38,507 nt of DNA from Candidatus Deferrimicrobiaceae bacterium (GCA_035465135.1 DATHRO010000102.1:1-38507); one strand, 5' to 3'; shown: positions 1 to 25,054, numbered from the stretch's first letter. Notes: generated by a model not told the origin, from the sequence alone. Translations and numbers: made by a program.

Positions 1-725
1 CGCGGGTCCTTCTCGACGAGGTGCTTGGCCAGCTGGACCGCACCGTTGGAGCCAAGGTGGCCCGGTGAATCGATGACCTCGGCCCCGAAGAGCGCCAGTA
101 GCTGGCGCCGCTCCATGGTGACGTTGTCCGGCAGCACGACCGCGACGCGGTAGCCCTTGCGACGGGCGATCATGGCCAGGCTGATGCCGGTGTTTCCGCT
201 CGTCGGCTCGATGATGATCGAGTCGGGCTTGAGCCGGCCCTCCCGCTCGAGCTCCTCGATGAGGTACTTGGCGACGCGGTCCTTGACCGAGCCGGTCGGG
301 TTGGCCGCCTCGAGCTTGGCCAGCAGCCGAACGGCCGAGCTCGGCGACAGGCGGCCGACCTCCACGATCGGGGTGCCGCCGATCGCGTCGTCGATGCCGT
401 CGAACCGACGCGCGGCGGCGACATCGGTCGCGGCCTGGCTGAGTGGCGCCACCGAGCCGCCGGCGATCGCCGGCAGCAGCCGGATCTCGTCGGTCGGGCC
501 GACCGGCGTCTCGAGGCCGGCGAGGTATCGGACGTCCTGGCCGTTGAGGTAGACGTTGACGAAGCGATGCAGGTCGCCATCGGGCGTCAGCAGCTGCGAG
601 GCGAGGCCCGGATGCAGATCGACGACGCCTCGGACGACGTCGCCGACGGTCCCGCCCTCGACGTCGATCGCCTTCTGGCCGTCGGCCTGCGCTCGCAGGA
701 CCGACGGCAGCCGGACGGTACTCAT
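1..725 (-). CDS. cysM: CysO-like ThiS/MoaD sulfur-carrier domain fused in frame to cysteine synthase (CysM-type, PLP-dependent). The 3' end is cut by the window edge.
   Basis: Absent from the ORF track because it runs off the window edge. The reverse-strand ATG at 725..723 overlaps the moeZ stop (ATGA). My translation is MSTVRLPSVLRAQADGQKAIDVEGG...DLHRFVNVYLNGQDVRYLAG...IRLLPAIAGG, with the GG codons at 461..456. It continues without a stop into SVAPLS...AIGGTPIVEV...KLEAANPTGSVKDR...IIEPTSGNTGISLAMIARRKGYRV...ERRQLL. The first 90 aa closely resemble mycobacterial CysO as I recall it (LHRFVN.Y.N..DVR, LP.AGG end). The remainder carries cysteine synthase PLP-fold motifs. Confidence 0.85.
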   Translation of the reverse strand, partial: MSTVRLPSVLRAQADGQKAIDVEGGTVGDVVRGVVDLHPGLASQLLTPDGDLHRFVNVYLNGQDVRYLAGLETPVGPTDEIRLLPAIAGGSVAPLSQAATDVAAARRFDGIDDAIGGTPIVEVGRLSPSSAVRLLAKLEAANPTGSVKDRVAKYLIEELEREGRLKPDSIIIEPTSGNTGISLAMIARRKGYRVAVVLPDNVTMERRQLLALFGAEVIDSPGHLGSNGAVQLAKHLVEKDP

Positions 726-1930
726 CGGGCCGCCCCGCCGGCGCCGAAGGCCCCGAGCGCGAACGGCTGGTCCGCCCCGACGACCGGTGCCGTGACGCGC
801 TCCCCGCGATCCCGCCGCGCTCGCGCGTCATCGGAGCAGATCGGGCACGCCGGGTCGCGTGCAAGGCGGAGCTCGCTGAACGAGCCGTCGAGGGCGTCGA
901 ACAGCAGCAGCCGCCCGACGAGCGGGTCGCCGATGCCGAGCAGGAGCTTGATGACCTCGTTGGCCTGGAGGAGGCCCATGATCCCGGGCACGACGCCGAG
1001 CACACCGGCAACCGAGCAGCCCGGCGCGAGCTCGGGCGGCGGCGGCGTCGGATAAAGGCAGCGATAGCACGGTCCGTCGTACGGCACGAATGTCGTCAGC
1101 TGGCCCTCGAACCGGAAGACCGACGCGTGGACCACCGGGATGCCGGCCGTGACGGCCGCGTCGTTGAGGAGGTAGCGGGTCTCGAACGTGTCGGTCCCGT
1201 CGAGGATGACGTCGTAGCCGGCGATCAGCCGCTCGACGTTGTCGGCGACGAGCATCTCGTCGTGGGCGACGACCTCCACGTCCGGGTTGAGTGCCTGGAT
1301 CGTCGTCCGCGCCGAATCGACCTTCTTCTCGCCCAGCCGCTCGGTCGAATGAATGACCTGGCGCTGGAGGTTCGACGCCTCGACGACGTCGAAGTCGACG
1401 ATGCCGAGCGTCCCGACGCCGGCCGCGGCGAGGTACAGCCCGGCCGGGCTGCCGAGACCGCCGGCGCCGATGAGCAGGACCTTTGACTCGAGCAGCTTCG
1501 CCTGGCCGGCCGAGCCGACCTCGGGGATCAGCAGGTGGCGGCTGTAGCGCTGCTGCTGGGCGGGGGTCAGCGTCGCCGGCGCCTCGATCGGCAGGCCCTC
1601 GCGATCCCAGGCCAGGATCCCGCCGGCCATGTTGACGACGTCGCGGTAGCCCATCTGCTCGAGCGTCTTGGTCGCATACGCGGAGCGCGCGCCGCTGCGG
1701 CAGTACACGACGATCGGCGTGCCGCGGTCCGGGATGGCGGCCTCGATCTGCTCCTCGAGGACGCCGCGCGGGATGAAGACCGCGCCGGGGATGTGGCCGG
1801 CGTCCCATTCGACCTGTTCGCGGACGTCCAGCAGGGTCGCGCCGGCCTTCCGGCGGTCGGCCGCCTCGGGCGCATCGACCTCGCGGATCGAGGCCTGGGT
1901 GCCTCGCAGGAGGTCGGAGGATGACTGCAT
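722..1930 (-). CDS. moeZ: MoeZ/MoeB/ThiF-type adenylyltransferase (E1-like) with an N-terminal rhodanese domain
   Basis: The N-terminus has a rhodanese active-site loop (VVYCRSGARS). It is followed by the ThiF Rossmann motif LLIGAGGLGSP and Zn-type CxxC pairs (CYRC, CPIC). The track start at 1945 is a TTG. An ATG at 1930 (MQSSSD...) has a GGAG about 9 nt upstream, so I prefer 1930. Confidence 0.85.
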   Translation of the reverse strand: MQSSSDLLRGTQASIREVDAPEAADRRKAGATLLDVREQVEWDAGHIPGAVFIPRGVLEEQIEAAIPDRGTPIVVYCRSGARSAYATKTLEQMGYRDVVNMAGGILAWDREGLPIEAPATLTPAQQQRYSRHLLIPEVGSAGQAKLLESKVLLIGAGGLGSPAGLYLAAAGVGTLGIVDFDVVEASNLQRQVIHSTERLGEKKVDSARTTIQALNPDVEVVAHDEMLVADNVERLIAGYDVILDGTDTFETRYLLNDAAVTAGIPVVHASVFRFEGQLTTFVPYDGPCYRCLYPTPPPPELAPGCSVAGVLGVVPGIMGLLQANEVIKLLLGIGDPLVGRLLLFDALDGSFSELRLARDPACPICSDDARARRDRGERVTAPVVGADQPFALGAFGAGGAAR

Positions 1931-2068
1931 CGGTGGGGACTCCAAGGTGAGAGCAGGGGACGATGATCGATCGCAGGCCCGGATCCGGATCGGGAGGCAG
2001 GGCCCGGGGCGCCGGCGGTCAGGCCGGCCGACGACACCTGCAGTGGCTCATGTCGAACATCGCGCGGC

Positions 2069-2491
2069 TCATCGACCGGGCTCGTCGGCGGCGACCGGCT
2101 TCGCGTCCGGAGCCTTGGCCTGTCCGTTCGCGCCCGCCAGCGCCCCCTGGAGCGTCTCGAGCGACAGCATCGCGCACTTCATCCGGGCCGGGCTGATCTC
2201 GATCCCGAGCAGGTCCAGGACATCCTGCGACGACATCCCGGCCGCCGTCGCGATCGGCTTGCCCTTGATCTCGTCGGTCAGCAGCGACGCAGAGGCCTGG
2301 CTGATCGCGCAGCCGCGACCCGTGAAGCCGACGCCGGCGACGACGCCGTCGGCCAGCCGCAGCTGGAGCGTGAGGCGGTCGCCGCAGAGAGGATTGGAAC
2401 CCTCCTGCGAGACCGTCGGGGCCTCGATGACCCCGAAGTTGTGGGGCCGCCGGTAGTGCTCAAGGATGTAGTCGCGGTAGAGATCGTCCAT
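2069..2491 (-). CDS. sufU: SufU/IscU-like Fe-S cluster sulfur-transfer and scaffold protein
   Basis: MDDLYRDYILEHYRRPHNFG...NPLCGD...GRGCAISQASASL...KCAMLS. This is the typical SufU three-Cys pattern, and the gene lies directly downstream of sufS. Confidence 0.85.
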   Translation of the reverse strand: MDDLYRDYILEHYRRPHNFGVIEAPTVSQEGSNPLCGDRLTLQLRLADGVVAGVGFTGRGCAISQASASLLTDEIKGKPIATAAGMSSQDVLDLLGIEISPARMKCAMLSLETLQGALAGANGQAKAPDAKPVAADEPGR

Positions 2492-2511
2492 GGCTGGCTC
2501 GGGGAGTGTAC

Positions 2512-3816
2512 TCAGTCGCCGAAGATTTGCTTGACCTCGCCGATCCCGGCGACGAGGGCATCGATGTCGGCCTCGTTCGTGTAGACGTTGAAGCTGGCGC
2601 GAGCGGTCGCCGGCACGTCGAGGCGCTCATGGAGCGGCATCGTGCAGTGATGGCCGGCCCGGACGGCAAGCCCGGAGGCGTCGAGGACCTGGGCCACGTC
2701 GTGCGGGTGGACGCCGGGGATCGTGAACGGGATGACGCCGCTCCGGACGTCGAGATCGCGCGGCCCGTATGTCACGACGTCGGGGTGGTCCCGATCGAGC
2801 GCGGCGAACGCGTACTCGAGCAGCCCGCGCTCGTGCTGATGCACGCGCTCCATGCCGAGCGTCATGAGGTACTCGGCGGCGGCGCCCAGCCCGATGGCCG
2901 CGCCGATGTCCGGGGTACCGGCCTCGAACTTCGTCGGGATCTCGTTGAACGTCGAGCGCCGGAGGTGGACCTCGCGGATCATCTCGCCGCCGGCCATGAA
3001 CGGCGGCATCGCCTCGAGCAGCTCGCGTCGAGCCCACAGCGCACCGGAGCCGGCTGGCGCCAGCATCTTGTGCCCCGAGAAGGCGTAGAAGTCGCAGCCG
3101 ATGGCCGCGATGTCGACCGCGACGTGCGGCACCGCCTGGGCACCATCGACGAGGACGAGCGCCCCGGCGTCGTGGGCCATCCGCGTCATCTCCGCGACGG
3201 GGTTGATCGTGCCGAGCGTGTTCGAGACGTGGGTGAAGGCGACCAGCTTCGGCTTCAGACGCAACAGGACCTCGAAGACGTCCTGGCGGAGGATGCCGTC
3301 GTCGGTGATCGGGATGAACTCGAGGTCGCCGTCCCTCTCCTGGGCCAGGAGCTGCCACGGCACCAGGTTCGCGTGGTGCTCCATCTCGGTCAGCACGATC
3401 GCGTCGCCCGGACCAATGTTGCGCCGACCCCAGGCGTAGGCCACGAGGTTGATTGCCTCGGTCGCGTTGCGAGTGAAGATGATCTCGTGGGCGTCGGACA
3501 CGTTGATGAACCGGGCCACCGACTCGCGCGCTGCCTCGTACGCGGCCGTGGCGCGCTCGCCGATCTCGTAGATGCCGCGGTGCACGTTGGCGCTGTACTC
3601 GCGGTAGTAGCCGTCCATCGCGTCGAGCACGGCCTGCGGCCGCAGGCTGGTCGCGGCCGAGTCGAGGTACACCAGCGGCCGGGTGCGTGCCCCGGCCGCG
3701 AGCATCGGGAAGTCGCGCCGGATGACGTCGGCGTCGAGACGGCCGTCTCGGATGCGACCGCCGAACTCGACCTGCCCGGCTGCGCCGGTCGCGGGGCGCC
3801 GCGTCGTGACCGTCAT
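2512..3816 (-). CDS. sufS: Cysteine desulfurase, SufS type (PLP, class V aminotransferase fold)
   Basis: Motifs HHANLVPWQ, FSGHKMLAPAGSGALW and RAGHHCTMPLH. I place the start at the ATG at 3816 (MTVTT...). It sits 16 nt after the sufC stop and is preceded by GGAGGAG. The track start at 3870 would overlap sufC. Confidence 0.9.
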   Translation of the reverse strand: MTVTTRRPATGAAGQVEFGGRIRDGRLDADVIRRDFPMLAAGARTRPLVYLDSAATSLRPQAVLDAMDGYYREYSANVHRGIYEIGERATAAYEAARESVARFINVSDAHEIIFTRNATEAINLVAYAWGRRNIGPGDAIVLTEMEHHANLVPWQLLAQERDGDLEFIPITDDGILRQDVFEVLLRLKPKLVAFTHVSNTLGTINPVAEMTRMAHDAGALVLVDGAQAVPHVAVDIAAIGCDFYAFSGHKMLAPAGSGALWARRELLEAMPPFMAGGEMIREVHLRRSTFNEIPTKFEAGTPDIGAAIGLGAAAEYLMTLGMERVHQHERGLLEYAFAALDRDHPDVVTYGPRDLDVRSGVIPFTIPGVHPHDVAQVLDASGLAVRAGHHCTMPLHERLDVPATARASFNVYTNEADIDALVAGIGEVKQIFGD

Positions 3817-3832
3817 CCTGCTCCTCCGCCCG

Positions 3833-4762
3833 TCAGCGGGCCGCCTCGACGCGCTCGCCGGCGCTGGCATCGGGCGTCATCTCGTCCGCCTCGTGGCCGT
3901 CGAGCTCGGGGCCCTGCGGCACGAACAGCGCCTCGTCGGGGAGGTCGATCGTCAGGCCGGCCTCGCGCATGATCGGGCCGTAGCCCTCCTCCTCCAGCCG
4001 CAGCGCCAGGTCCTTGCCGCCGCTCTTCACGATCCGGCCCTGGGCCAGGACGTGGACGACGTCCGGGGTGATGTAGTTCAGCAGCCGCTGGTAGTGGGTG
4101 ATCAGCAGGATCCCGAGCTCGGGGTTGCGCATCGCGTTCACGCCGTCGGCGACGATCCGGAGGGCGTCGATGTCGAGGCCCGAATCGGTTTCGTCGAGGA
4201 TCGCCATGGCCGGCTCGATCATCGCCATCTGGAGCATCTCGAGTCGCTTCTTCTCGCCGCCCGAGAAGCCCTCGTTGACGTAGCGCGTCGCGAAGCTCTC
4301 GTCCATCCGCAACAGCGCCAGCTTCTCGCGCATCTTGCGCCGGAAGTCGAGCATCGAGACGCCGCCGCGCATCGGGTCGGTCGGGTCGATGTCGGCCGAC
4401 TTGTCGATCCCCTGGAGCTTGGCGTTCATGGCGCTTCGAATGAACGAAGCGACGCTCAGGCCGGGGATCGCGGTCGGGTACTGGAAGGCCAGGAACATCC
4501 CGAGCCGGGCGCGCTTGTCGGGGCTGAGCTTCAGGACGTCGCGGCCCTGCCAGGTCACGTTGCCGGCCGTGACGACATACGCCGGGTGGCCCATCAGGGC
4601 GTAGGCGAGGGTCGTCTTGCCCGAGCCGTTGGGACCCATGATCGCGTGGACCTCGCCGGGCGCGACCTCGAGGTCGATGCCCTGCAGGATCTCCCGCTCG
4701 GGCGCGGCGGCTGGCGCGACGCGCAGGCCGCGAATGACGAGATTTCGATCGCTTCCGGTCAC
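3833..4762 (-). CDS. sufC: SufC Fe-S assembly ATPase (ABC-type) with a C-terminal extension of about 50 aa
   Basis: Walker A GPNGSGKTT, signature FSGGEKKR, Walker B ILDETDSGLD and H-loop ITHY. The GTG start overlaps the Rrf2 stop (GTGA at 4759-4762). Confidence 0.9.
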   Translation of the reverse strand: MTGSDRNLVIRGLRVAPAAAPEREILQGIDLEVAPGEVHAIMGPNGSGKTTLAYALMGHPAYVVTAGNVTWQGRDVLKLSPDKRARLGMFLAFQYPTAIPGLSVASFIRSAMNAKLQGIDKSADIDPTDPMRGGVSMLDFRRKMREKLALLRMDESFATRYVNEGFSGGEKKRLEMLQMAMIEPAMAILDETDSGLDIDALRIVADGVNAMRNPELGILLITHYQRLLNYITPDVVHVLAQGRIVKSGGKDLALRLEEEGYGPIMREAGLTIDLPDEALFVPQGPELDGHEADEMTPDASAGERVEAAR

Positions 4763-5283
4763 GGTGGGGTCAGGGCTCCTTCGAGCTGGGGGTCGGCCGG
4801 AGTCGCCGACCGCGCGACGCGGATCGGCGAGTCACGAGGCGGCACGAGGTCGGCCAGGGTCATCCCGTCGAGCGCGCCAGCCACGGCATCGCGCACCCGC
4901 AGCCACAGGAAGTTGACGGTGCACGACGAGGTGCGGCCGCACAGGTCGGCATGCTCGGGTGAATCGGTGGCGCAGATCATCGGCGCCAGCGGGCCCTCGA
5001 GCGCGCGCAGGATCTCGCTCATCGGGATCTCGGCGGGCGGCCGGGTCAGCTCATAGCCGCCGTGGGCGCCCCTGGTCGAGGCGACGAGGCCGGCATCACG
5101 CAGCACGAACGCGAGCTGCTCGAGGTAGGCCCGCGGCATGTCCTCGGCTGCGGCCATCTCCGCCAGCGAGGCCGGGCCCTGCCCGAAGTGTCGTCCGAGC
5201 TGAACCATCAGCCGGACGCCGTACTCGCCCTTCGTGCTGAAGGCAACGGCGCCGGTCCCGTGGAATGCGGGTCGCGTGGTCAC
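4759..5283 (-). CDS. Rrf2-family transcriptional regulator (IscR/SufR-like) with a three-Cys cluster
   Basis: The Rrf2 N-terminal wHTH region reads STKGEYGVRLMVQL...LAEMAAAEDMPRAYLEQLAFVLRDAGLVASTRGAHGGYEL. A Cys triad follows (CATDSPEHADLCGRTSSC). It is the first gene of the suf operon and starts with GTG. Confidence 0.85.
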   Translation of the reverse strand: MTTRPAFHGTGAVAFSTKGEYGVRLMVQLGRHFGQGPASLAEMAAAEDMPRAYLEQLAFVLRDAGLVASTRGAHGGYELTRPPAEIPMSEILRALEGPLAPMICATDSPEHADLCGRTSSCTVNFLWLRVRDAVAGALDGMTLADLVPPRDSPIRVARSATPADPQLEGALTPP

Positions 5284-5308
5284 AGCGGCGTGTGGCAGGG
5301 GTCAGATC

Positions 5309-5339
5309 CTCAATCCCGACTCAATCGGTCGGGATTGAG
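5309..5339. promoter_or_regulatory. Perfect 12-7-12 inverted repeat, a candidate Rrf2 operator in the divergent promoter region
   Basis: CTCAATCCCGAC-tcaatcg-GTCGGGATTGAG read directly from the sequence. It lies 26 nt upstream of the Rrf2 start, between divergent genes. A TACACT -10-like hexamer lies just upstream of it on the minus strand. Confidence 0.6.
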
Positions 5340-5422
5340 TGTACGGCGCACCGCGGAGGGGCGCAACGGTGCGTGGTCGCGGCGTTGATTCGAGCCCTTC
5401 GGCTCTCCACTCGCTATCCCTG

Positions 5423-6154
5423 ATGGTCGACGCTGGGGCCGTGACATCCGCCATCCTGTCCCACGCCGAGCCCTCGCCGCGCGCCGAGCCCTCGCCGCGC
5501 GCCGAGCCGTCGCGGCTGCCCTACTCGCCGCTCATGCAGCAGCTCATCAGGCCGCTGCAGCACGGCTTCCTGGTCCTGAACCGGTGGTTCATGGCACCGG
5601 CGCTACGGGCCGGGCTGGGGCGACTGATCGGCAATCCCCTCACCGGCCACCTCATGCTGCTGCGCACCCGCGGCCGGCGAAGCGGCCTGATCCGCGAGGC
5701 GCCGCTCGGCTACGTGATCCTCGACGGGGCCGTGTACTGCGTCGCGGGCTACGGCGTCAGAAGCCCCTGGCTGTTGAACCTCGAAGCGGATCCCAACGTG
5801 GAGGTCATCCTGCCCGGCCGAACGCTCCGCGGCCGGGCGGCGGTCGTCTCCGACGACGCCGAGTGGGTTCGGGCATACCGGGCGCTGATTGCGAGCTTCG
5901 GGTTCGTCGGGCCTATCTTCCATCGCGATCCTGCGAAGCTCGATGACGCGACGCTGCTGGCGACGCACGGCTCGCTGCCGGTAGTCCGGGTTGATCCGGT
6001 CGACGCACGCTCCCCGCTCGTGTCAGGCCAGTGGGATCCCGGCGGCCGGGGCTGGCTCGTGTCGCACCTCATCGCGATCGGGGCGACAGTGTCGGCGTTC
6101 ACGCTCGCTCGGCTGTTCCGAAGGCCACGGCCGGCCGGAAGACTCGGACCGTAG
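5423..6154 (+). CDS. Deazaflavin (F420)-dependent nitroreductase-family protein (DDN/DUF385-like) with a C-terminal TM helix
   Basis: LNRWFMAPALRAGLG...LLRTRGRRSGLIREAPLGYVILDGAVYCVAGYG..SPWLLNLEADPNVEV matches the DDN-family split beta-barrel pattern. The start is uncertain among 5339, 5423 and 5534. I chose 5423 (ATG) because third-position GC is high from there on. Confidence 0.65.
   Translation: MVDAGAVTSAILSHAEPSPRAEPSPRAEPSRLPYSPLMQQLIRPLQHGFLVLNRWFMAPALRAGLGRLIGNPLTGHLMLLRTRGRRSGLIREAPLGYVILDGAVYCVAGYGVRSPWLLNLEADPNVEVILPGRTLRGRAAVVSDDAEWVRAYRALIASFGFVGPIFHRDPAKLDDATLLATHGSLPVVRVDPVDARSPLVSGQWDPGGRGWLVSHLIAIGATVSAFTLARLFRRPRPAGRLGP
5465..5515 (+). repeat. 18-bp tandem repeat (about 2.8 copies) encoding AEPSPR hexapeptide repeats
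   Basis: GCCGAGCCCTCGCCGCGC occurs at 5465-5482 and again at 5483-5500. A diverged partial third copy follows. Confidence 0.85.
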
Positions 6155-6159
6155 GCCGT

Positions 6160-6984
6160 TCAGGCGCGATCCGAGAGCAGATCTCGGCGCCACGCCTCCG
6201 TGGGTTCGACGTTGTTGAACGTGTAGAGGTGGAGATCGACGACGTTCATGGCCGGACTGGCCAGCACGGGGGCCAGATCCTCGAGAAGCCCGGTTGCGCG
6301 GTAGACGCCGCCTGATCTGAGCAGCGCGGCCACGAAGCGCGTGTTCTTCAGCACGAACCTGCGAGCGTCCCGGACCCCGATCCGCGCGCTGATCGAGAGC
6401 AGCTTCGGGATCTCGGCCACGCCCGGCACGCCGAGCTTGACCGGCAGCGCGATGCCCTCCGCCCGTCGCTCGGCGAGGAACCGCTCGAGGGCCTTCGGGT
6501 CGAAGCACATCTGGGTCGTCATGTACGACGCAAACGGCGCCTTGTCGCGAAGCGCCTGGAGCAGGGCGTCGTCGGCGATCAGCGGGTGACCCTGCGGGTA
6601 ACAGCCGATTCCGATCTCGGCGGGCAGCCGGCCCATGTCGGCCATCGCCCGCAGCAGCGCGAGCGCGTCGCCGAACTCACCCGGCTCGGTCGGGTCACCG
6701 CCGATGACGAACGCCCGGTCGATGCCCCGGTCGGCCATCCGATCGAGGATCGAATGGAGCTCGCGCGTGTCGCGGATCAGTCGCGCCGCGAGATGCGGGA
6801 CCGCCCGGAACCCGTCGCGCTCCAGCTCGACCGCCAGGTCGACCGTGGCGGCCATGCCCTTCGCCGGCGAGGCCGTGACCGAGACGGTTGCGCCGGGCGG
6901 CAGGTGCGACGCCTGATCGAGGGCGTTCTTGAGCGGGATCAGCTCCCACGTCGGGGCCGCGAGCAGGCGCGCGAGGGCGTTCAC
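6160..6984 (-). CDS. Methylenetetrahydrofolate reductase-like protein (MetF/MTHFR fold)
   Basis: WELIPLKN...VSVTASP...AVPHLAARLIRD...AFVIGGDP...IGIGCYPQGHPLI...YMTTQMCFD is an MTHFR TIM-barrel-like pattern. The track start at 7080 would overlap the divergent neighbour. The GTG at 6984 (VNALARLL) is my preferred start, but this is uncertain. Confidence 0.6.
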   Translation of the reverse strand: MNALARLLAAPTWELIPLKNALDQASHLPPGATVSVTASPAKGMAATVDLAVELERDGFRAVPHLAARLIRDTRELHSILDRMADRGIDRAFVIGGDPTEPGEFGDALALLRAMADMGRLPAEIGIGCYPQGHPLIADDALLQALRDKAPFASYMTTQMCFDPKALERFLAERRAEGIALPVKLGVPGVAEIPKLLSISARIGVRDARRFVLKNTRFVAALLRSGGVYRATGLLEDLAPVLASPAMNVVDLHLYTFNNVEPTEAWRRDLLSDRA

Positions 6985-7078: not shown

Positions 7079-8503
7079 ATGACGACCGCGCGTCAGGGGC
7101 TCCCGGTGGAGCTGCCAGAGGCCTCGCTGGCCGACCTCCGACGCCAGCTCGATGGAGAGATCGTGCTCCCGTCCGATCCGGCCTACGACGCGGGTCGGCG
7201 GCCTTGGAACGCCATGGTCGACAAGCGGCCGGCCATCATCCTGCGGCCGCGGGGCACGGCCGACATCGTGACCGGGATCCGCTTCGCGCGCGCCAACGCT
7301 CTTGAGATCGCCGTGCGCGGCGGCGGCCATGCCGCGTCCGGCCTGTCCGCGACCGAGGGCGGCCTGCTCCTCGACCTTTCGCTGATGCGCGCCGTACGGA
7401 TCGATCTCCACGCGCGGCGGGCGTGGGTCCAGGGCGGCTGTCTGCTTCGCGACCTCGACCGCGAGGCCCAGCTCCACGGCCTGGCAACCACGGGCGGCGT
7501 CGTCTCGCACACTGGCGTGGGCGGCCTGACGCTCGGCGGCGGCTACGGGTACCTCGCCCGACGGTTCGGCCTGGCCTGCGACAACATCCGTGCCGCCGAG
7601 CTCGTCACCGCCGACGGCGAGGTCCTGGCCGTCAGCGAGGAACATCATCCCGAGATCCTGTGGGGCCTCCGCGGCGGCGGCGGGAACCTCGGCGTCGTCA
7701 GCGCCTTCGAGTTCGAGCTCCATCCGTTCGGCCCCGACATGCTCACCGGCGACCTTGCCTATCCGCTCGAGACGGGGTTCGCGGCCATCCGTCGGCTGCT
7801 CGACCTGGCGGCGGACGCACCCGACGCGTTCATGGCCTCCGCCGCGGTCGTGACCGCGCGCCCGATGCCGATCCTGCCCGAGTCGATCCACGGTCGGCCG
7901 ATGGTCTGGGTGTCGTACACGTGGGCCGGGGAGGTCGAGGCTGGCAGGCGCTTCCTCCCGGAGCTCAAGCGCGCCGGCGAGCCGCTGTTCGAGGACCTCG
8001 ACGTGCTGCCCTACGTGCGGCTCCAGCGGCTCGGCGATGAATCGCAGCGCCACGGGCGGCGGCAGTATGCGCGCTCGCATTTCATCCGCTCGACGCCCGA
8101 TGCGTTCGTCGAGGCCTTCCTCGACCGTGCCGGGGCGGCGCCCGGCGTCGCCCCTTCCGGGAGCATCACCCAGCTCGGCGGGGCGATCGCCCGGGTCGCA
8201 GCCGCGGACAGCGCCTTCAGCGGCCGTGACGCGCTGTACGACTTCGTCGTCACCGCGACCTGGGACGATCCCTCCGAGGATGCCGACCGGATGGCCGCTG
8301 CTCGCGCCTACGCCGGCGCCATCGAACCGCACTCGACCGGGCGGTCGTACGTCAACGCCATCGAGGACGACCGGACCGCGGGCGTGCAGGCGGCCTTCGG
8401 CGGCGAGGTGTACGAGCGGCTGGTCCAGCTCAAGGATCGCCACGACCCGGACAACGTTTTCCACCTGAACCAGAACGTTCGACCGTCGGCCGCCAGTCAG
8501 TAG
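7079..8503 (+). CDS. FAD-binding oxidoreductase, VAO/BBE (berberine-bridge-like) family
   Basis: FAD_binding_4-like region RPAIILRPRGTADIVTGIRFARANALEIAVRGGGH. BBE-like C-terminus YERLVQLKDRHDPDNVFHLNQNV. Starts at the ATG at 7079 (MTTARQG). Confidence 0.8.
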   Translation: MTTARQGLPVELPEASLADLRRQLDGEIVLPSDPAYDAGRRPWNAMVDKRPAIILRPRGTADIVTGIRFARANALEIAVRGGGHAASGLSATEGGLLLDLSLMRAVRIDLHARRAWVQGGCLLRDLDREAQLHGLATTGGVVSHTGVGGLTLGGGYGYLARRFGLACDNIRAAELVTADGEVLAVSEEHHPEILWGLRGGGGNLGVVSAFEFELHPFGPDMLTGDLAYPLETGFAAIRRLLDLAADAPDAFMASAAVVTARPMPILPESIHGRPMVWVSYTWAGEVEAGRRFLPELKRAGEPLFEDLDVLPYVRLQRLGDESQRHGRRQYARSHFIRSTPDAFVEAFLDRAGAAPGVAPSGSITQLGGAIARVAAADSAFSGRDALYDFVVTATWDDPSEDADRMAAARAYAGAIEPHSTGRSYVNAIEDDRTAGVQAAFGGEVYERLVQLKDRHDPDNVFHLNQNVRPSAASQ

Positions 8504-9582
8504 CGGACGACGACCAGCCGATCGACGCCCGATTCGGCGCCCCAGGCCTCGCCGGGCCGGCCGAGCATCTGGCGGACGGCGGCGCCGTCGCGGTCCGACG
8601 GGAACGACAGGAAGGCCTCCGTCAGCGGGTCGAAGCGCAGGATCGCGTTCTGCCCGAAGTCGGTGACCCAGACGGCGTCGAGCTCGTCGACGTAGACCGA
8701 GTAGGCCTGGTTGCCGCCGCCCGGCAGATCCCACTCCTGCCACGACCCGTCGGCCGGGTCGTAGACGGCCAGCAGCCCGGCGTTCCAGTAGGTGATCCAC
8801 AGCCGGCCGCGCGAATCGGACCAGACGCGCCGGGTGCCGGCATTCGCCGTCGGTGGCTCGATGACCGTGATCTCGCCGCTCACGCGGTCCACCCGGCCGA
8901 GGTAGCTCGCCGCCAGGGAGACGAAGTAGACGTCGTTCGACGGGGTCACCGCGATGCCGTACGGGCCGCCGCCGCGCGGCGTCGGGAACGCCTCGATGTC
9001 GCCCGACGCCGGGTCGAGCCGCGCCACGATCCCGCGCTGGCCAGTGAACCACAGGATCCCGTCGTGGTCGAAGACCCCGGTGTGGGGTGCCATGCCGCGG
9101 GCGCCTGCCGGCATCGGGAAGACGGTCACCGCGAAGTCGCCGGTGGTCACCCGGACGATCGCATCGAGGCCCTGATCGGTGGCCCACGCTGCGCCGTCCG
9201 GCCCGGAGACCACGCCGTGCGGAGCCGCACCCTGTCCCAGCGGCACCTCATAGACTTCGCCGCTCGCCGGGTCGAGCCAGCCCAGCGTGCCGTTGTGCTG
9301 GCCCGTGTACCAGACCCCGCCATCGGCCGCCGGGGCGACGTCGTGCGGATGCGCGCCGCGAGGCACGCGGTACGCCTGGACGGCGAAGGTCAGCTCGGCG
9401 ACGGCCGTGGGGCCGGCCGTCGGATCGTCGGTCGGCAACGTGGCGCTGGCAGTGAGGCTCGGGGCTGCGGCCGTCGGCGACGGCGGGACGGCGGTCGGCG
9501 GGGCAGGCGAGGTGATCGACTCGCAGCCGGCAAGCAGCACGGCGGCGATGACGCCGGCGAGGGCCCGGGGACGCGCGGCCAT
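8497..9582 (-). CDS. Lipoprotein with a Vgb/SMP-30-like beta-propeller
   Basis: ATG at 9582 (MAARPRALAGVIAAVLLAGC, a lipobox). Blade-like segments recur: APHGVVSGPDGAAWATD, GVFDHDGILWFTG, GPYGIAVTPSNDVYFV, RGRLWITYW. Confidence 0.6.
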   Translation of the reverse strand: MAARPRALAGVIAAVLLAGCESITSPAPPTAVPPSPTAAAPSLTASATLPTDDPTAGPTAVAELTFAVQAYRVPRGAHPHDVAPAADGGVWYTGQHNGTLGWLDPASGEVYEVPLGQGAAPHGVVSGPDGAAWATDQGLDAIVRVTTGDFAVTVFPMPAGARGMAPHTGVFDHDGILWFTGQRGIVARLDPASGDIEAFPTPRGGGPYGIAVTPSNDVYFVSLAASYLGRVDRVSGEITVIEPPTANAGTRRVWSDSRGRLWITYWNAGLLAVYDPADGSWQEWDLPGGGNQAYSVYVDELDAVWVTDFGQNAILRFDPLTEAFLSFPSDRDGAAVRQMLGRPGEAWGAESGVDRLVVVRY

Positions 9583-9675
9583 GGCGACCACAGGGTACCG
9601 GCGATCCCCGCCGAGGCCGGCCCGCGGCGAGGTCGGCTTGCAGCGAGGTTCGCGCGCCGCCAAGATTCGCGCCAC

Positions 9676-10815
9676 GTGACCGCGATCCGCACGACGCTCC
9701 GCTGTGCCGCCATCGCGCTCATCGCGGCAGCCTGCAGCCAGGGCCCCGGCCCCAGCTCGACCACCGGTCCGGTCCTCCCCGACGCGTTCGTGCCCGACAC
9801 GGAGCTGCTCGCCGCGGCGGAGGCCGAGGGCGGCACCCTGACCACCATCGCGCTGCCCCGCGACTGGTGCAACTATGGGGCGCTCATCGATGCCTTCGAG
9901 GCTCACACCGGGCTCGCCGTCAACGAGCTTGCCCCGAACAGTGGCTCGAGCGACGAGATCGAGGCCATCCGGGCGAGCGAGGGCAACCCCGGCCCGGCCG
10001 CCCCGGACGTCGTCGACGTCAGCCTGCCGTTCGGCCCGTTCGCCGCGGACCAGGGCCTCCTGGCGCCCTACAAGGTCCGGGCCTGGGACGCCATCCCTGC
10101 TTCATCCAAGGATCCCGACGGCCGCTGGCACGGCGGCTACTTCGGCGTGACCTCGTTCGAGGTCAACACGGCCTTCGTCGATCGACCGCCGACCGACTGG
10201 CCCGACCTGCTGGCGTCCGAGTACGCCAACCAGCTCGCCCTGCCGGGCGATCCCCGACACTCGAACCAGGCGATGATGGCCGTGTACGCCGCTTCGCTGG
10301 GCAACGGCGGCTCGCTCGACGACGCCCGGCCGGGCCTCGATCTGTTCCGCCAGCTGGCCGAGAGCGGCAACCTCCTGCCGACGATCGCGACCGCGACGAG
10401 CTCGGCCTCGGGCGAGACGCCGATCACGATCCGGTGGACCCATCACTCCCTGCCCAGCCGGGATGCGACCGCGGCGGCCGAAGGCCCGCGCATCGAGATC
10501 GTCGTTCCGGCCAGCGGGCCGCTGGGGCAGCTGTCCGTGCAGGCGATCAGCGCCCACGCCCCTCACCCGAGCGCGGCGAAGCTGTGGATGGAGTTCCTCT
10601 ACTCGGACGAGGGCCAGCTGCTGTGGCTGGAGGGCTACTGCCACCCGGTTCGGTTCGAGCATCTCGTGGCAGAGGACAAGATTCCGGCCGGCCTGCTGGC
10701 CCGGCTCCCGGACGTCAGCGGCGTCCGGTTCCCGACGCTGGCGCAGCTCGACGCTGCCCGGGAGCTGATCGAGGGCCAGTGGGATGCGGTCGTCGGCGTC
10801 GACATCCGCCAGTAG
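9676..10815 (+). CDS. ABC-transporter-type extracellular solute-binding lipoprotein (family 1, PotD/AfuA-like). No permease or ATPase gene is adjacent.
   Basis: GTG at 9676 (VTAIRTTLRCAAIALIAAAC, a lipobox). Overall it resembles a periplasmic binding protein (TIALPRDWCNYG..., KLWMEFLYSDEGQ). Confidence 0.6.
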   Translation: MTAIRTTLRCAAIALIAAACSQGPGPSSTTGPVLPDAFVPDTELLAAAEAEGGTLTTIALPRDWCNYGALIDAFEAHTGLAVNELAPNSGSSDEIEAIRASEGNPGPAAPDVVDVSLPFGPFAADQGLLAPYKVRAWDAIPASSKDPDGRWHGGYFGVTSFEVNTAFVDRPPTDWPDLLASEYANQLALPGDPRHSNQAMMAVYAASLGNGGSLDDARPGLDLFRQLAESGNLLPTIATATSSASGETPITIRWTHHSLPSRDATAAAEGPRIEIVVPASGPLGQLSVQAISAHAPHPSAAKLWMEFLYSDEGQLLWLEGYCHPVRFEHLVAEDKIPAGLLARLPDVSGVRFPTLAQLDAARELIEGQWDAVVGVDIRQ

Positions 10816-24575: not shown

Positions 24576-24640
24576 GGGGCCGCCGCGCCCGGGCCGTTCG
24601 GCACTGTTGCGCGCCGCGCCCGATCCCGACCCTAGGAGCC

Positions 24641-25054
24641 ATGCGCGTGACCCTGTCGCTGCGGGGCGACTACGCCGTGCGAACGATGCTCGCTCTCGGC
24701 GAGCACCGGGATGACGGCCTGCTGAGCGCCGGGCGGATCGCCGAGCGGATGCAGATCCCGGTGCGCTTCGTGGCCCACGTCCTGGGTGACCTCGTGCGGG
24801 CCGGCCTCGTCAGCGGCCGACCCGGGCGCCACGGCGGCTATCAGCTCGCCCTACCGGCTCGGCAGATCGACCTGCTGCGGATCGTCGACGCCGCCGAGGA
24901 CCGCGGCGACGTCGCGCGCTGCGTGCTGCGCGGCGGGCCATGCGATCCGAGCGGCCGATGCGCGGTCCACGATGCCTTCGCCGCCGCCAACGAGGCGCTC
25001 CGCAGCGAGCTGGCGGCGAGGCGGCTCTCGGAGCTGGTCGACGGCGGTCGCTGA
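24641..25054 (+). CDS. Rrf2-family transcriptional regulator (NsrR-like by context) with a three-Cys motif
   Basis: AGGAG lies 3 nt upstream of the ATG. MRVTLSLRGDYAVRTMLAL...GRPGRHGGYQL..., with Cys triad CVLRGGPCDPSGRC. Confidence 0.85.
   Translation: MRVTLSLRGDYAVRTMLALGEHRDDGLLSAGRIAERMQIPVRFVAHVLGDLVRAGLVSGRPGRHGGYQLALPARQIDLLRIVDAAEDRGDVARCVLRGGPCDPSGRCAVHDAFAAANEALRSELAARRLSELVDGGR

Follow-up and report, generated by a model that had tools for sequence, protein, structure and literature searches.

Escherichia coli IscR, a regulator of the Rrf2 fold with three cysteines, acts through a 25-bp type-1 palindrome with a GAC...GTC core, both in autoregulation and at the promoters of iron–sulfur (Fe-S) assembly genes. 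The SUF assembly genes of Bacillus and the Actinobacteria stand in operons ordered sufCDSUB and sufR-sufBDCSU-sufT. The CysO pathway of Mycobacterium tuberculosis comprises mec (Rv1334), cysO (Rv1335), cysM (Rv1336) and MoeZR (Rv3206c), the last of which serves both CysO and MoaD (PMC3227635). Leader open reading frames (ORFs) with Cys codons were predicted some time ago, with Rho-dependent termination suggested (PMC1262725), and those of mycobacteria have since been shown experimentally to attenuate cysteine operons (bioRxiv 10.1101/834739). Here we describe an operon at one end of a 38,507-nucleotide contig from a genome deposited as Candidatus Deferrimicrobiaceae bacterium (GCA_035465135.1 DATHRO010000102.1:1-38507; this whole stretch is called the window below), in which an Rrf2-type regulator gene and three suf genes run directly into genes for an E1 enzyme, a CysO-like sulfur carrier and a putative cysteine synthase of the CysM type.

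Comparison with related genomes suggests that this operon is one transcription unit of a small IscR-like regulon, which would combine a split SUF system with a Mycobacterium-type CysO/CysM/Mec pathway, most likely under the control of the Rrf2 repressor; we give this reading a probability of about 0.7. Its parts are all known and no new chemistry is involved. What is new is the wiring: a split SUF system under what appears to be one IscR-like operator, with the thiocarboxylate pathway of cysteine synthesis in the same regulon, and a candidate Cys-codon leader that separates the consumers of cysteine sulfur from the genes for cysteine synthesis. Literature searches on CysO with SufU, on SufU or SufBD with Chloroflexi, and on CysO or MoeZ with desulfurase returned no paper describing this arrangement.

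The window is the complete contig C102 of a metagenome-assembled genome, the bin of which holds 1.54 Mb in 168 contigs and is 60% complete. Its GC content is ~71%, and by sequence comparison the closest public loci belong to class Limnocylindria of the phylum Chloroflexota.

The operon, its operator and the distant sufB and sufD

Six long ORFs, all on the minus strand, fill positions 3-5283, and every gene that a first-pass annotation had named there was recovered with the support of curated models. Furthest upstream is the Rrf2-family regulator (4759..5283; PF02082, 120 bits; TIGR00738, 109 bits against a cut-off of 73), followed by the ABC ATPase gene sufC (3833..4762; TIGR01978, 324 bits against 213), the type II cysteine desulfurase gene sufS (2512..3816; TIGR01979, 552 bits against 475) and the sulfurtransferase gene sufU (2069..2491; TIGR01994, 112 bits against 92.5). 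Next comes the E1 adenylyltransferase, a ThiF-domain protein with an N-terminal rhodanese (722..1930; NF006444, 555 bits against 449). In the last frame, a CysO-like ThiS-fold sulfur-carrier domain ending in ...LLPAIAGG (456..725; PF02597, 39.7 bits, with SAMP1 and MoaD models matching as well) is joined to a linker (S-V-A-P...) and the N-terminal 136 amino acids of CysM (3..455; PF00291, 122 bits). The operon reaches the edge of the contig, so this final gene is incomplete.

The junctions are as tight as had been described. Rrf2 and sufC share a GTGA at 4759-4762 and the E1 gene and cysO an ATGA at 722-725, and the 16-nucleotide gap ahead of sufS carries the ribosome-binding site GGAGGAG 6 nucleotides from the ATG at 3816. 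Between sufS and sufU lie 20 nucleotides, and the E1 start codon at 1930 has GGAG 9 nucleotides upstream. An acidic tail that had been pointed out on SufC does exist, reaching 47 amino acids or so past the SufC model, but its sequence is not conserved in relatives, in which the tail is acidic or proline-rich, 15-50 amino acids long and without a shared motif. Because both its length and its sequence vary, we rejected the tail as a functional domain.

Neither sufB nor sufD lies in the operon, as the first-pass annotation had stated, and none was found inside 30 kb on the window contig. The idea that the SUF proteins here work without SufB and SufD is not supported by a search of the genome, which located both genes on contig C22 behind the same operator as Rrf2. 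There, sufB (8948-10357; TIGR01980, 700 bits) and sufD (7514-8905; SUFBD core domain match) form a two-gene unit that has no adjoining sufC and is convergent with a penicillin amidase gene, and the sufC in the window is the sole copy detected in the genome. SufC, the SufS/SufU pair and the SufB/SufD scaffold are thus all encoded within one genome. We then placed the same genes in 40 relatives, drawn from the genus and from a sister family with ~1.1-Mb genomes. Wherever both were found, sufB and sufC either lay on separate contigs or, within a single contig, had 250 kb between them, and sufC was present once per genome with a single exception. With sufBD and sufCSU apart, neither this genome nor its relatives show the canonical single-operon layout; the counter-layout is that of locus L045, in which sufB-sufD-Rrf2-sufC-sufS-sufU-E1-cysO are consecutive. 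Since sufBD lie elsewhere and sufC is single, in relatives as in this genome, gene placement indicates a SUF system that is split, not reduced. As a separate observation, the SufB match in some members of the genus is halved inside one long frame of 700-854 amino acids (G006:C7:46626-49043, G015:C41:4060-6486, G007:C164 and G013), which suggests an intein-like insert in SufB.

The two halves of the split system share an operator. A genome-wide pattern search found the 25-bp palindrome AATCCCGA-N9-TCGGGATT, which is IscR type-1-like, at 5312..5336, and exactly two copies at 0 mismatches in the 1.54-Mb genome, one before Rrf2 and one before sufB on C22 (10394-10418); no copy with one or two mismatches was present in the same 1.54 Mb. 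Among related loci, all 32 of 32 operator matches (≤2 mismatches) fell 26-141 nucleotides upstream of Rrf2, sufB or sufU, and the sites at sufU occur in genomes in which inserted genes part sufS from sufU. Only 2-3 operator sites per genome were counted in five relatives (2.6-3.3 Mb), against 0 matches for the reversed control pattern.

The promoter contexts are equally consistent. In the window, a -35-like hexamer TTGCGC (5361..5366, minus strand) and a -10-like hexamer TACACT (5338..5343, minus strand), the latter 1 base upstream of the operator, were recognized by alignment with relatives, and the pattern TTGACG/TTGCGC-N17-TA(C/G)ACT immediately ahead of the palindrome is kept in 15 of 15 aligned relatives. 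The sufB promoter, TTGACG-N17-GATAAT, has its -10 hexamer inside the palindrome, and at sufU a TAGAAT comes after the palindrome, ~12 nucleotides ahead of the ATG. A generic promoter and terminator scan of 1-5700 returned nothing; the Rrf2 promoter scores under the threshold of that scan.

The regulator itself has the winged-helix domain and the three cluster-ligand cysteines of an IscR-type protein. The triad, C-X8-10-C-X5-9-C, which the first-pass annotation had pointed out, is invariant in 28 of 28 aligned orthologues. The position and symmetry of the palindrome, together with its likeness to the E. coli IscR type-1 operator, make Rrf2 its putative binding protein. That one Rrf2-type regulator governs the whole set, as had been proposed, is strongly backed by the operator common to the Rrf2 and sufB promoters. 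Solirubrobacterales loci in which Rrf2-suf is divergent from E1-cysO gave no operator match at ≤2 mismatches, and may use another site. Two further elements were noted in passing: a second Rrf2-like stretch in the window (24635-24898, plus strand) with 35% identity to the operon regulator over 88 amino acids, and a different palindrome, ATGCCGA-N9-TCGGCAT, on contig C122 of the same genome (4698-4722) near a stand-alone rhodanese gene (5121-5681, minus strand).

Gene order, too, is conserved, in keeping with the composite operon first proposed. The order Rrf2-sufC-sufS-sufU-E1-cysO-cysM(-mec) runs throughout the genus and part of the sister family; it was seen up to cysM in 11 of 11 Limnocylindria-like loci found with E1, and further sufC-centred loci keep it with a JAB/Mec protease gene after cysM (PF14464 in L017). 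Some sister-family genomes have Rrf2-sufCSU only, among them G025, which has no ThiF or ThiS-fold gene at all, and in several Solirubrobacterales the Rrf2-suf cluster is divergent from E1-cysO. A census of 61 genus genomes allowed the sufS-sufU junction to be classed in 49. The two genes are tightly joined in 17, have 0.15-7.2 kb inserted between them in 28 and lie on different contigs in 4, so that the junction is broken in 32 of 49. By comparison, sufU and E1 share contig and strand in all 51 genomes in which both were found. Unrelated cargo has repeatedly entered the sufS-sufU junction, including an FtsX-like permease (~1000 amino acids), RHS-repeat proteins and BNR proteins (L012 1763-8796, L100 2580-8175, L103 773-7938, L015, L019 and L105), and in these genomes sufU is preceded by an operator copy of its own. 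The distance from sufU to E1 is bimodal, with a long form of 770-944 nucleotides in 20 of the 51 genomes.

The interval between sufU and the E1 gene

Positions 1931-2068 had been taken as a plain gap, but contain a conserved 17-codon ORF and a hairpin. The mini-ORF, MSRAMFDMSHCRCRRPA (2019..2072, minus strand), begins at an ATG that overlaps the sufU stop as ATGA, and its stop codon falls in the loop of the hairpin GCCGGC-CTGACC-GCCGGC (2011..2028, minus strand), which was identified by alignment of relatives. An untranslated spacer, C-rich and G-poor (1931..2010, minus strand; C 46%, G 25%), leads from there to E1. Its C/G ratio of 1.85 lies above the 99th percentile of random 90-nucleotide windows of the genome, and relatives have ratios of 1.2-2.6.

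Seventeen related loci likewise have a start codon, ATG or GTG, that overlaps the sufU TGA, and they encode a peptide that ends in C-x-C-x-x-P-A, with one additional residue in four of them (L013, L014 and L100 among these). The mini-ORF is 10-33 codons long and keeps the same frame across at least eight lengths; the part before the Cys codons is not conserved, and the block that stands out when the gap is aligned across relatives is the in-frame end of the mini-ORF. Its stop is TGA, once TAA (in L100, with a 3-nucleotide insert), and always lies inside the hairpin loop. Two relatives have a third Cys codon. The element is unique in the genome and tracks sufU, not E1, where the gap is long. 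It is missing where E1 starts on the sufU stop (L022 and L045) and also where cysO and cysM are missing, in L097 (6684-8191) and L102 (6247-7808), which have E1 and then JAB directly, beside sufU. A 1-Cys peroxiredoxin gene, which has no counterpart in the window, lies between the mini-ORF and E1 in L012 (9357-10010), its stop overlapping the E1 start. The long sufU-E1 gaps of 20 genomes equal that of L012 in size, with the peroxiredoxin identified in L012 itself only; such an insert between leader and E1 would fit an oxidative-stress theme.

Because short ORFs with Cys codons attenuate cysteine operons in mycobacteria, we read the mini-ORF as probably a cysteine-sensing leader peptide, a candidate of known kind in an unusual place, namely within an operon, where it is tied to the gene before it. 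We weighed this against the rather unlikely alternative that mini-ORF and hairpin do not sense cysteine and are instead a structural mRNA element, or encode a tiny C-x-C peptide with a function of its own. As an mRNA element, they would act as a site of processing, stability or partial termination that fixes how much SUF protein is made relative to cysteine-pathway protein. This would suit the invariance of the nucleotide string CTGCNNGTGT and of both hairpin arms, a rare TGT codon that never becomes TGC, and a fold of the interval in which no alternative antiterminator/terminator pair was found. It accords poorly with a reading frame held over at least eight lengths, with starts that overlap the sufU stop in 17 loci, with indels in multiples of three in the stretch from the Cys codons to the stop, with the gain of a third Cys codon in two relatives, and with the loss of the element where cysO and cysM are missing. 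Rfam at E≤1 over 1-6500 gave one chance microRNA match only, and the single-sequence fold of the interval was no better than that of shuffled sequences (z = +0.8). The terminator and independent promoter between sufU and E1 that would speak against a joint operon were thus not detected, although the conserved candidate leader and its hairpin do occupy that interval.

Several observations count against an IscR-like regulon with a cysteine-sensing leader. The Rrf2 protein does not reach the cut-offs of the equivalog models for IscR and CymR (TIGR02010, 79 against 208; NF008110, 62 against 275; CymR, the best of these, 118 against 195). In split genomes, the sufU operator covers the -35 region, not the -10, which could mean activation at sufU. 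The bin is incomplete and may mix populations, and its contig C127 holds a diverged second cysM-JAB fragment with 79.5% identity to the window in a 220-nucleotide overlap. The mini-ORF has only two Cys codons, which are not adjacent, and the second is always the rare TGT, a constancy that a motif in the nucleotides could explain without any constraint on coding. The hairpin draws no support from covariation, a test made uninformative by the invariance of both arms, and the sufU-E1 interval shows no terminator-like U-run and no clear structure masking a ribosome-binding site.

In the regulon that we nevertheless favour, the three-cysteine Rrf2 protein would bind the palindrome overlapping the start region of its own promoter and the identical palindrome overlapping the -10 box of the separate sufB-sufD operon. 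SufC, SufS and SufU would be made from the window operon and SufB and SufD from elsewhere, the common operator keeping the two in step. The rhodanese-E1 would adenylate and sulfurate the Gly-Gly end of CysO, CysM would join the resulting thiocarboxylate to activated serine, and the JAB/Mec protease, encoded after cysM in relatives, would free cysteine and trim CysO. Joined in this way, the two halves of the operon would couple Fe-S assembly, the main consumer of cysteine sulfur, to an oxidation-tolerant supply of cysteine, with an Fe-S-sensing switch above both. The sufU-coupled mini-ORF with its two Cys codons, the hairpin and the C-rich spacer would probably provide a second input, by which the supply of charged tRNA-Cys adjusts how far the cysteine-synthesis genes are read through or translated. 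Confirmation would make the operon a clear natural example of a sulfur economy governed at two levels, by Fe-S status and by the charging of tRNA-Cys, in a lineage of soil and groundwater that is abundant but uncultured.

The E1 enzyme, its carriers and their possible sulfur donor

The E1 had been annotated as MoeZ, a name that does not hold as a family assignment. MoeZ-type proteins have a ThiF domain followed by a C-terminal rhodanese; both domains are present here in reversed order, with the rhodanese (PF00581) at residues 26-115 and ThiF (PF00899) at residues 134-368. Since the MoeZ model NF005902 failed (382 against a cut-off of 647) and NF006444 passed, we keep moeZ for a functional analogy only. 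This E1 is the only ThiF-family gene found in the genome, and the same is true of two relatives that are 90-94% complete; G000, G002 and G023 each have one ThiF-type E1. With a single E1 per genome, the enzyme must therefore also serve MoaD.

A second ubiquitin-fold carrier fused to its partner was seen in this genome on contig C128 (locus L120; 2355-3299, minus strand), where MoaD and MoaE share one 314-codon frame, with ThiS at residues 73-149 ending in VSGG and MoaE at residues 168-287. At the corresponding position, relatives carry open frames of about this length. A further ThiS-fold gene is present besides CysO and this MoaD~MoaE frame.

Within the CysO~CysM frame, cysKM and cysM models match residues 109-241 and the Lys of SVKDR is present. 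The carrier domain has the AIAGG motif and the frame continues into CysM, so that a free Gly-Gly end would need cleavage. The fusion was seen on this contig only. Some 70 related loci encode CysO in an ORF of its own, which has 90-96 codons and ends in AGG plus 0-8 residues, with cysM in another frame, and the two are also separate in the closest relative, which has 84% identity over 5.3 kb. The usual GGC GGC TGA N ATG has become GGC GGC TCG GTG in the window, with the stop lost and the cysM start in frame; the GTG after Gly-Gly-Ser aligns with the cysM start codon of relatives. The fusion may be an assembly artefact, since the contig ends 450 nucleotides beyond the junction and another cysM fragment, diverged from this one, is present in the bin; against this, the change is no simple one-base error. 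A genuine fusion could plausibly be processed after Gly-Gly; many relatives need extra residues to be trimmed, and their operons include a JAB protease. The Mec/JAB gene itself, found after cysM in relatives and on C127 of the bin, would lie past the contig end here.

On C127 (locus L122), we observed the 3' part of a cysM (2-757), a JAB protease gene (754-1245) and a Usp gene on the opposite strand. This cysM has 89% identity to that of the relative L104, and its lower identity to the window cysM led us to reject C127 as the continuation of the window gene; it comes either from a second population in the bin or from a paralogue.

A further, more doubtful proposal builds on the first-pass suggestion that SufS/SufU persulfide could feed the thiocarboxylate pathway, and takes gene linkage to reflect a physical hand-off: the SufS persulfide, formed from cysteine, would pass to SufU (or stay on SufS), then to the rhodanese cysteine of E1, and from there to CysO and the other carriers as thiocarboxylate, with SufU as the branch point between Fe-S assembly and thiocarboxylate. 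The junction census speaks for it, in that sufU stays with E1 in 51 of 51 genus genomes and sufS-sufU is broken in 32 of 49. In addition, translation chains sufU to what follows, directly to E1 by ATGA in L022 and L045 and by way of the mini-ORF in other loci; E1-JAB stands beside sufU even without cysO and cysM (L097 and L102); and there is a single ThiF-type E1, with MoaD~MoaE and the further ThiS-fold gene requiring both an E1 and sulfur derived from cysteine. There are also published precedents for transfer from a desulfurase to a rhodanese-E1 protein, from human NFS1 to MOCS3 and from E. coli IscS through YnjE to MoeB/MoaD. In E. coli CsdA-CsdE-TcdA, an enzyme resembling SufS and an acceptor resembling SufE are likewise grouped with an E1-like protein.

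Several points stand against such a relay. Given the established reactions of SufS and CysM, it would be futile for cysteine synthesis, as every cysteine formed would cost another. The linkage can be explained just as well by co-regulation, sufU bearing an operator and promoter in split genomes, and most E1-CysO-CysM loci of Ktedonobacteria and Solirubrobacterales have no suf genes nearby. Another cysteine-desulfurase-like gene is present in the genome (TIGR01976, 463 bits), and the literature searched documents no transfer from SufU to a rhodanese. The relay is more credible for molybdopterin synthesis, with the fused MoaD~MoaE, than for cysteine synthesis. We therefore hold only a low expectation that SufS-SufU is the physiological persulfide donor of E1, that SufU splits sulfur between Fe-S assembly and MoaD plus CysO, and that the leader opens or closes the E1 branch according to cysteine supply. 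The physiological sulfur donor of mycobacterial MoeZR is still open (PMC3227635), and the tight sufU-E1 linkage offers a testable candidate for this question; if the proposal were true, the long-sought in vivo sulfur donor of a MoeZ-type enzyme would be named.

Highly improbable, and already contradicted, is a scaffold-free role for SufC, SufS and SufU as a device that mobilizes sulfur for the thiocarboxylate pathway and not for Fe-S clusters: it would account for the 30 kb of window contig without sufB or sufD, but the genome does have sufBD, which lack a sufC of their own and share the operator, relatives repeat the split and its operator, L045 has sufBD directly ahead of Rrf2-sufC-sufS-sufU-E1, and sister-family genomes without E1 or a ThiS-fold gene retain Rrf2-sufCSU.

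Comparison with known systems

The regulator and its sites resemble E. coli IscR in the Rrf2 fold, the three cysteines and a 25-bp palindrome at its own and at Fe-S assembly promoters, with binding putative here. They differ from it in model score (79 against 208 bits), in the spacing of the cysteines and in a regulon that apparently comprises SUF and the CysO pathway only. Relative to the SUF operons of Bacillus and the Actinobacteria, the genome encodes the same SufC, SufB and SufD and a type II SufS whose partner is SufU, not SufE, but sufBD and Rrf2-sufCS(U) occupy distant sites and non-SUF genes follow sufU. The regulator is of the Rrf2 type, unlike the ArsR-type SufR.

The mini-ORF has its closest counterparts in the mycobacterial polycysteine short ORFs that act as attenuators, such as Ms5788A and Rv2334A (bioRxiv 10.1101/834739; PMC1262725). 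Like them, it is very short and otherwise unconserved, has its Cys codons near the stop in all 17 loci and stands directly upstream of cysteine-metabolism genes with no classical terminator; for C-rich leaders of this sort, the mechanism put forward is of the Rho type. In contrast to the mycobacterial class, it is not leaderless but starts on the stop of the upstream gene sufU, inside an operon, and its Cys codons are one codon apart as C-x-C rather than consecutive (a CC pair occurs only in L098 and L100). Its stop lies in a conserved hairpin loop, and its host belongs to the Chloroflexota.

For the CysO~CysM fusion, the nearest parallel is MoaX of M. tuberculosis, a MoaD-MoaE fusion through Gly-Gly-Ser that needs cleavage after Gly-Gly (GG|S) to work (PMC4326299). 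The CysO~CysM junction is likewise GG|S, and this genome also has its MoaD~MoaE fusion; the fusion partner here is CysM instead, and cleavage is putative.

The set described here is predicted to have the same four functions as the CysO pathway of M. tuberculosis: a Gly-Gly ThiS-fold carrier, a rhodanese E1, a CysM-type pyridoxal phosphate enzyme and a JAB protease, the last known from relatives and from C127. In M. tuberculosis, as must be the case here, one E1 serves more than one carrier. What sets the present locus apart is an E1 with an N-terminal rhodanese that falls below the MoeZ cut-off and is encoded inside the operon, a carrier in frame with CysM on this contig, and the joining of the whole set to SUF genes behind an Rrf2 operator.

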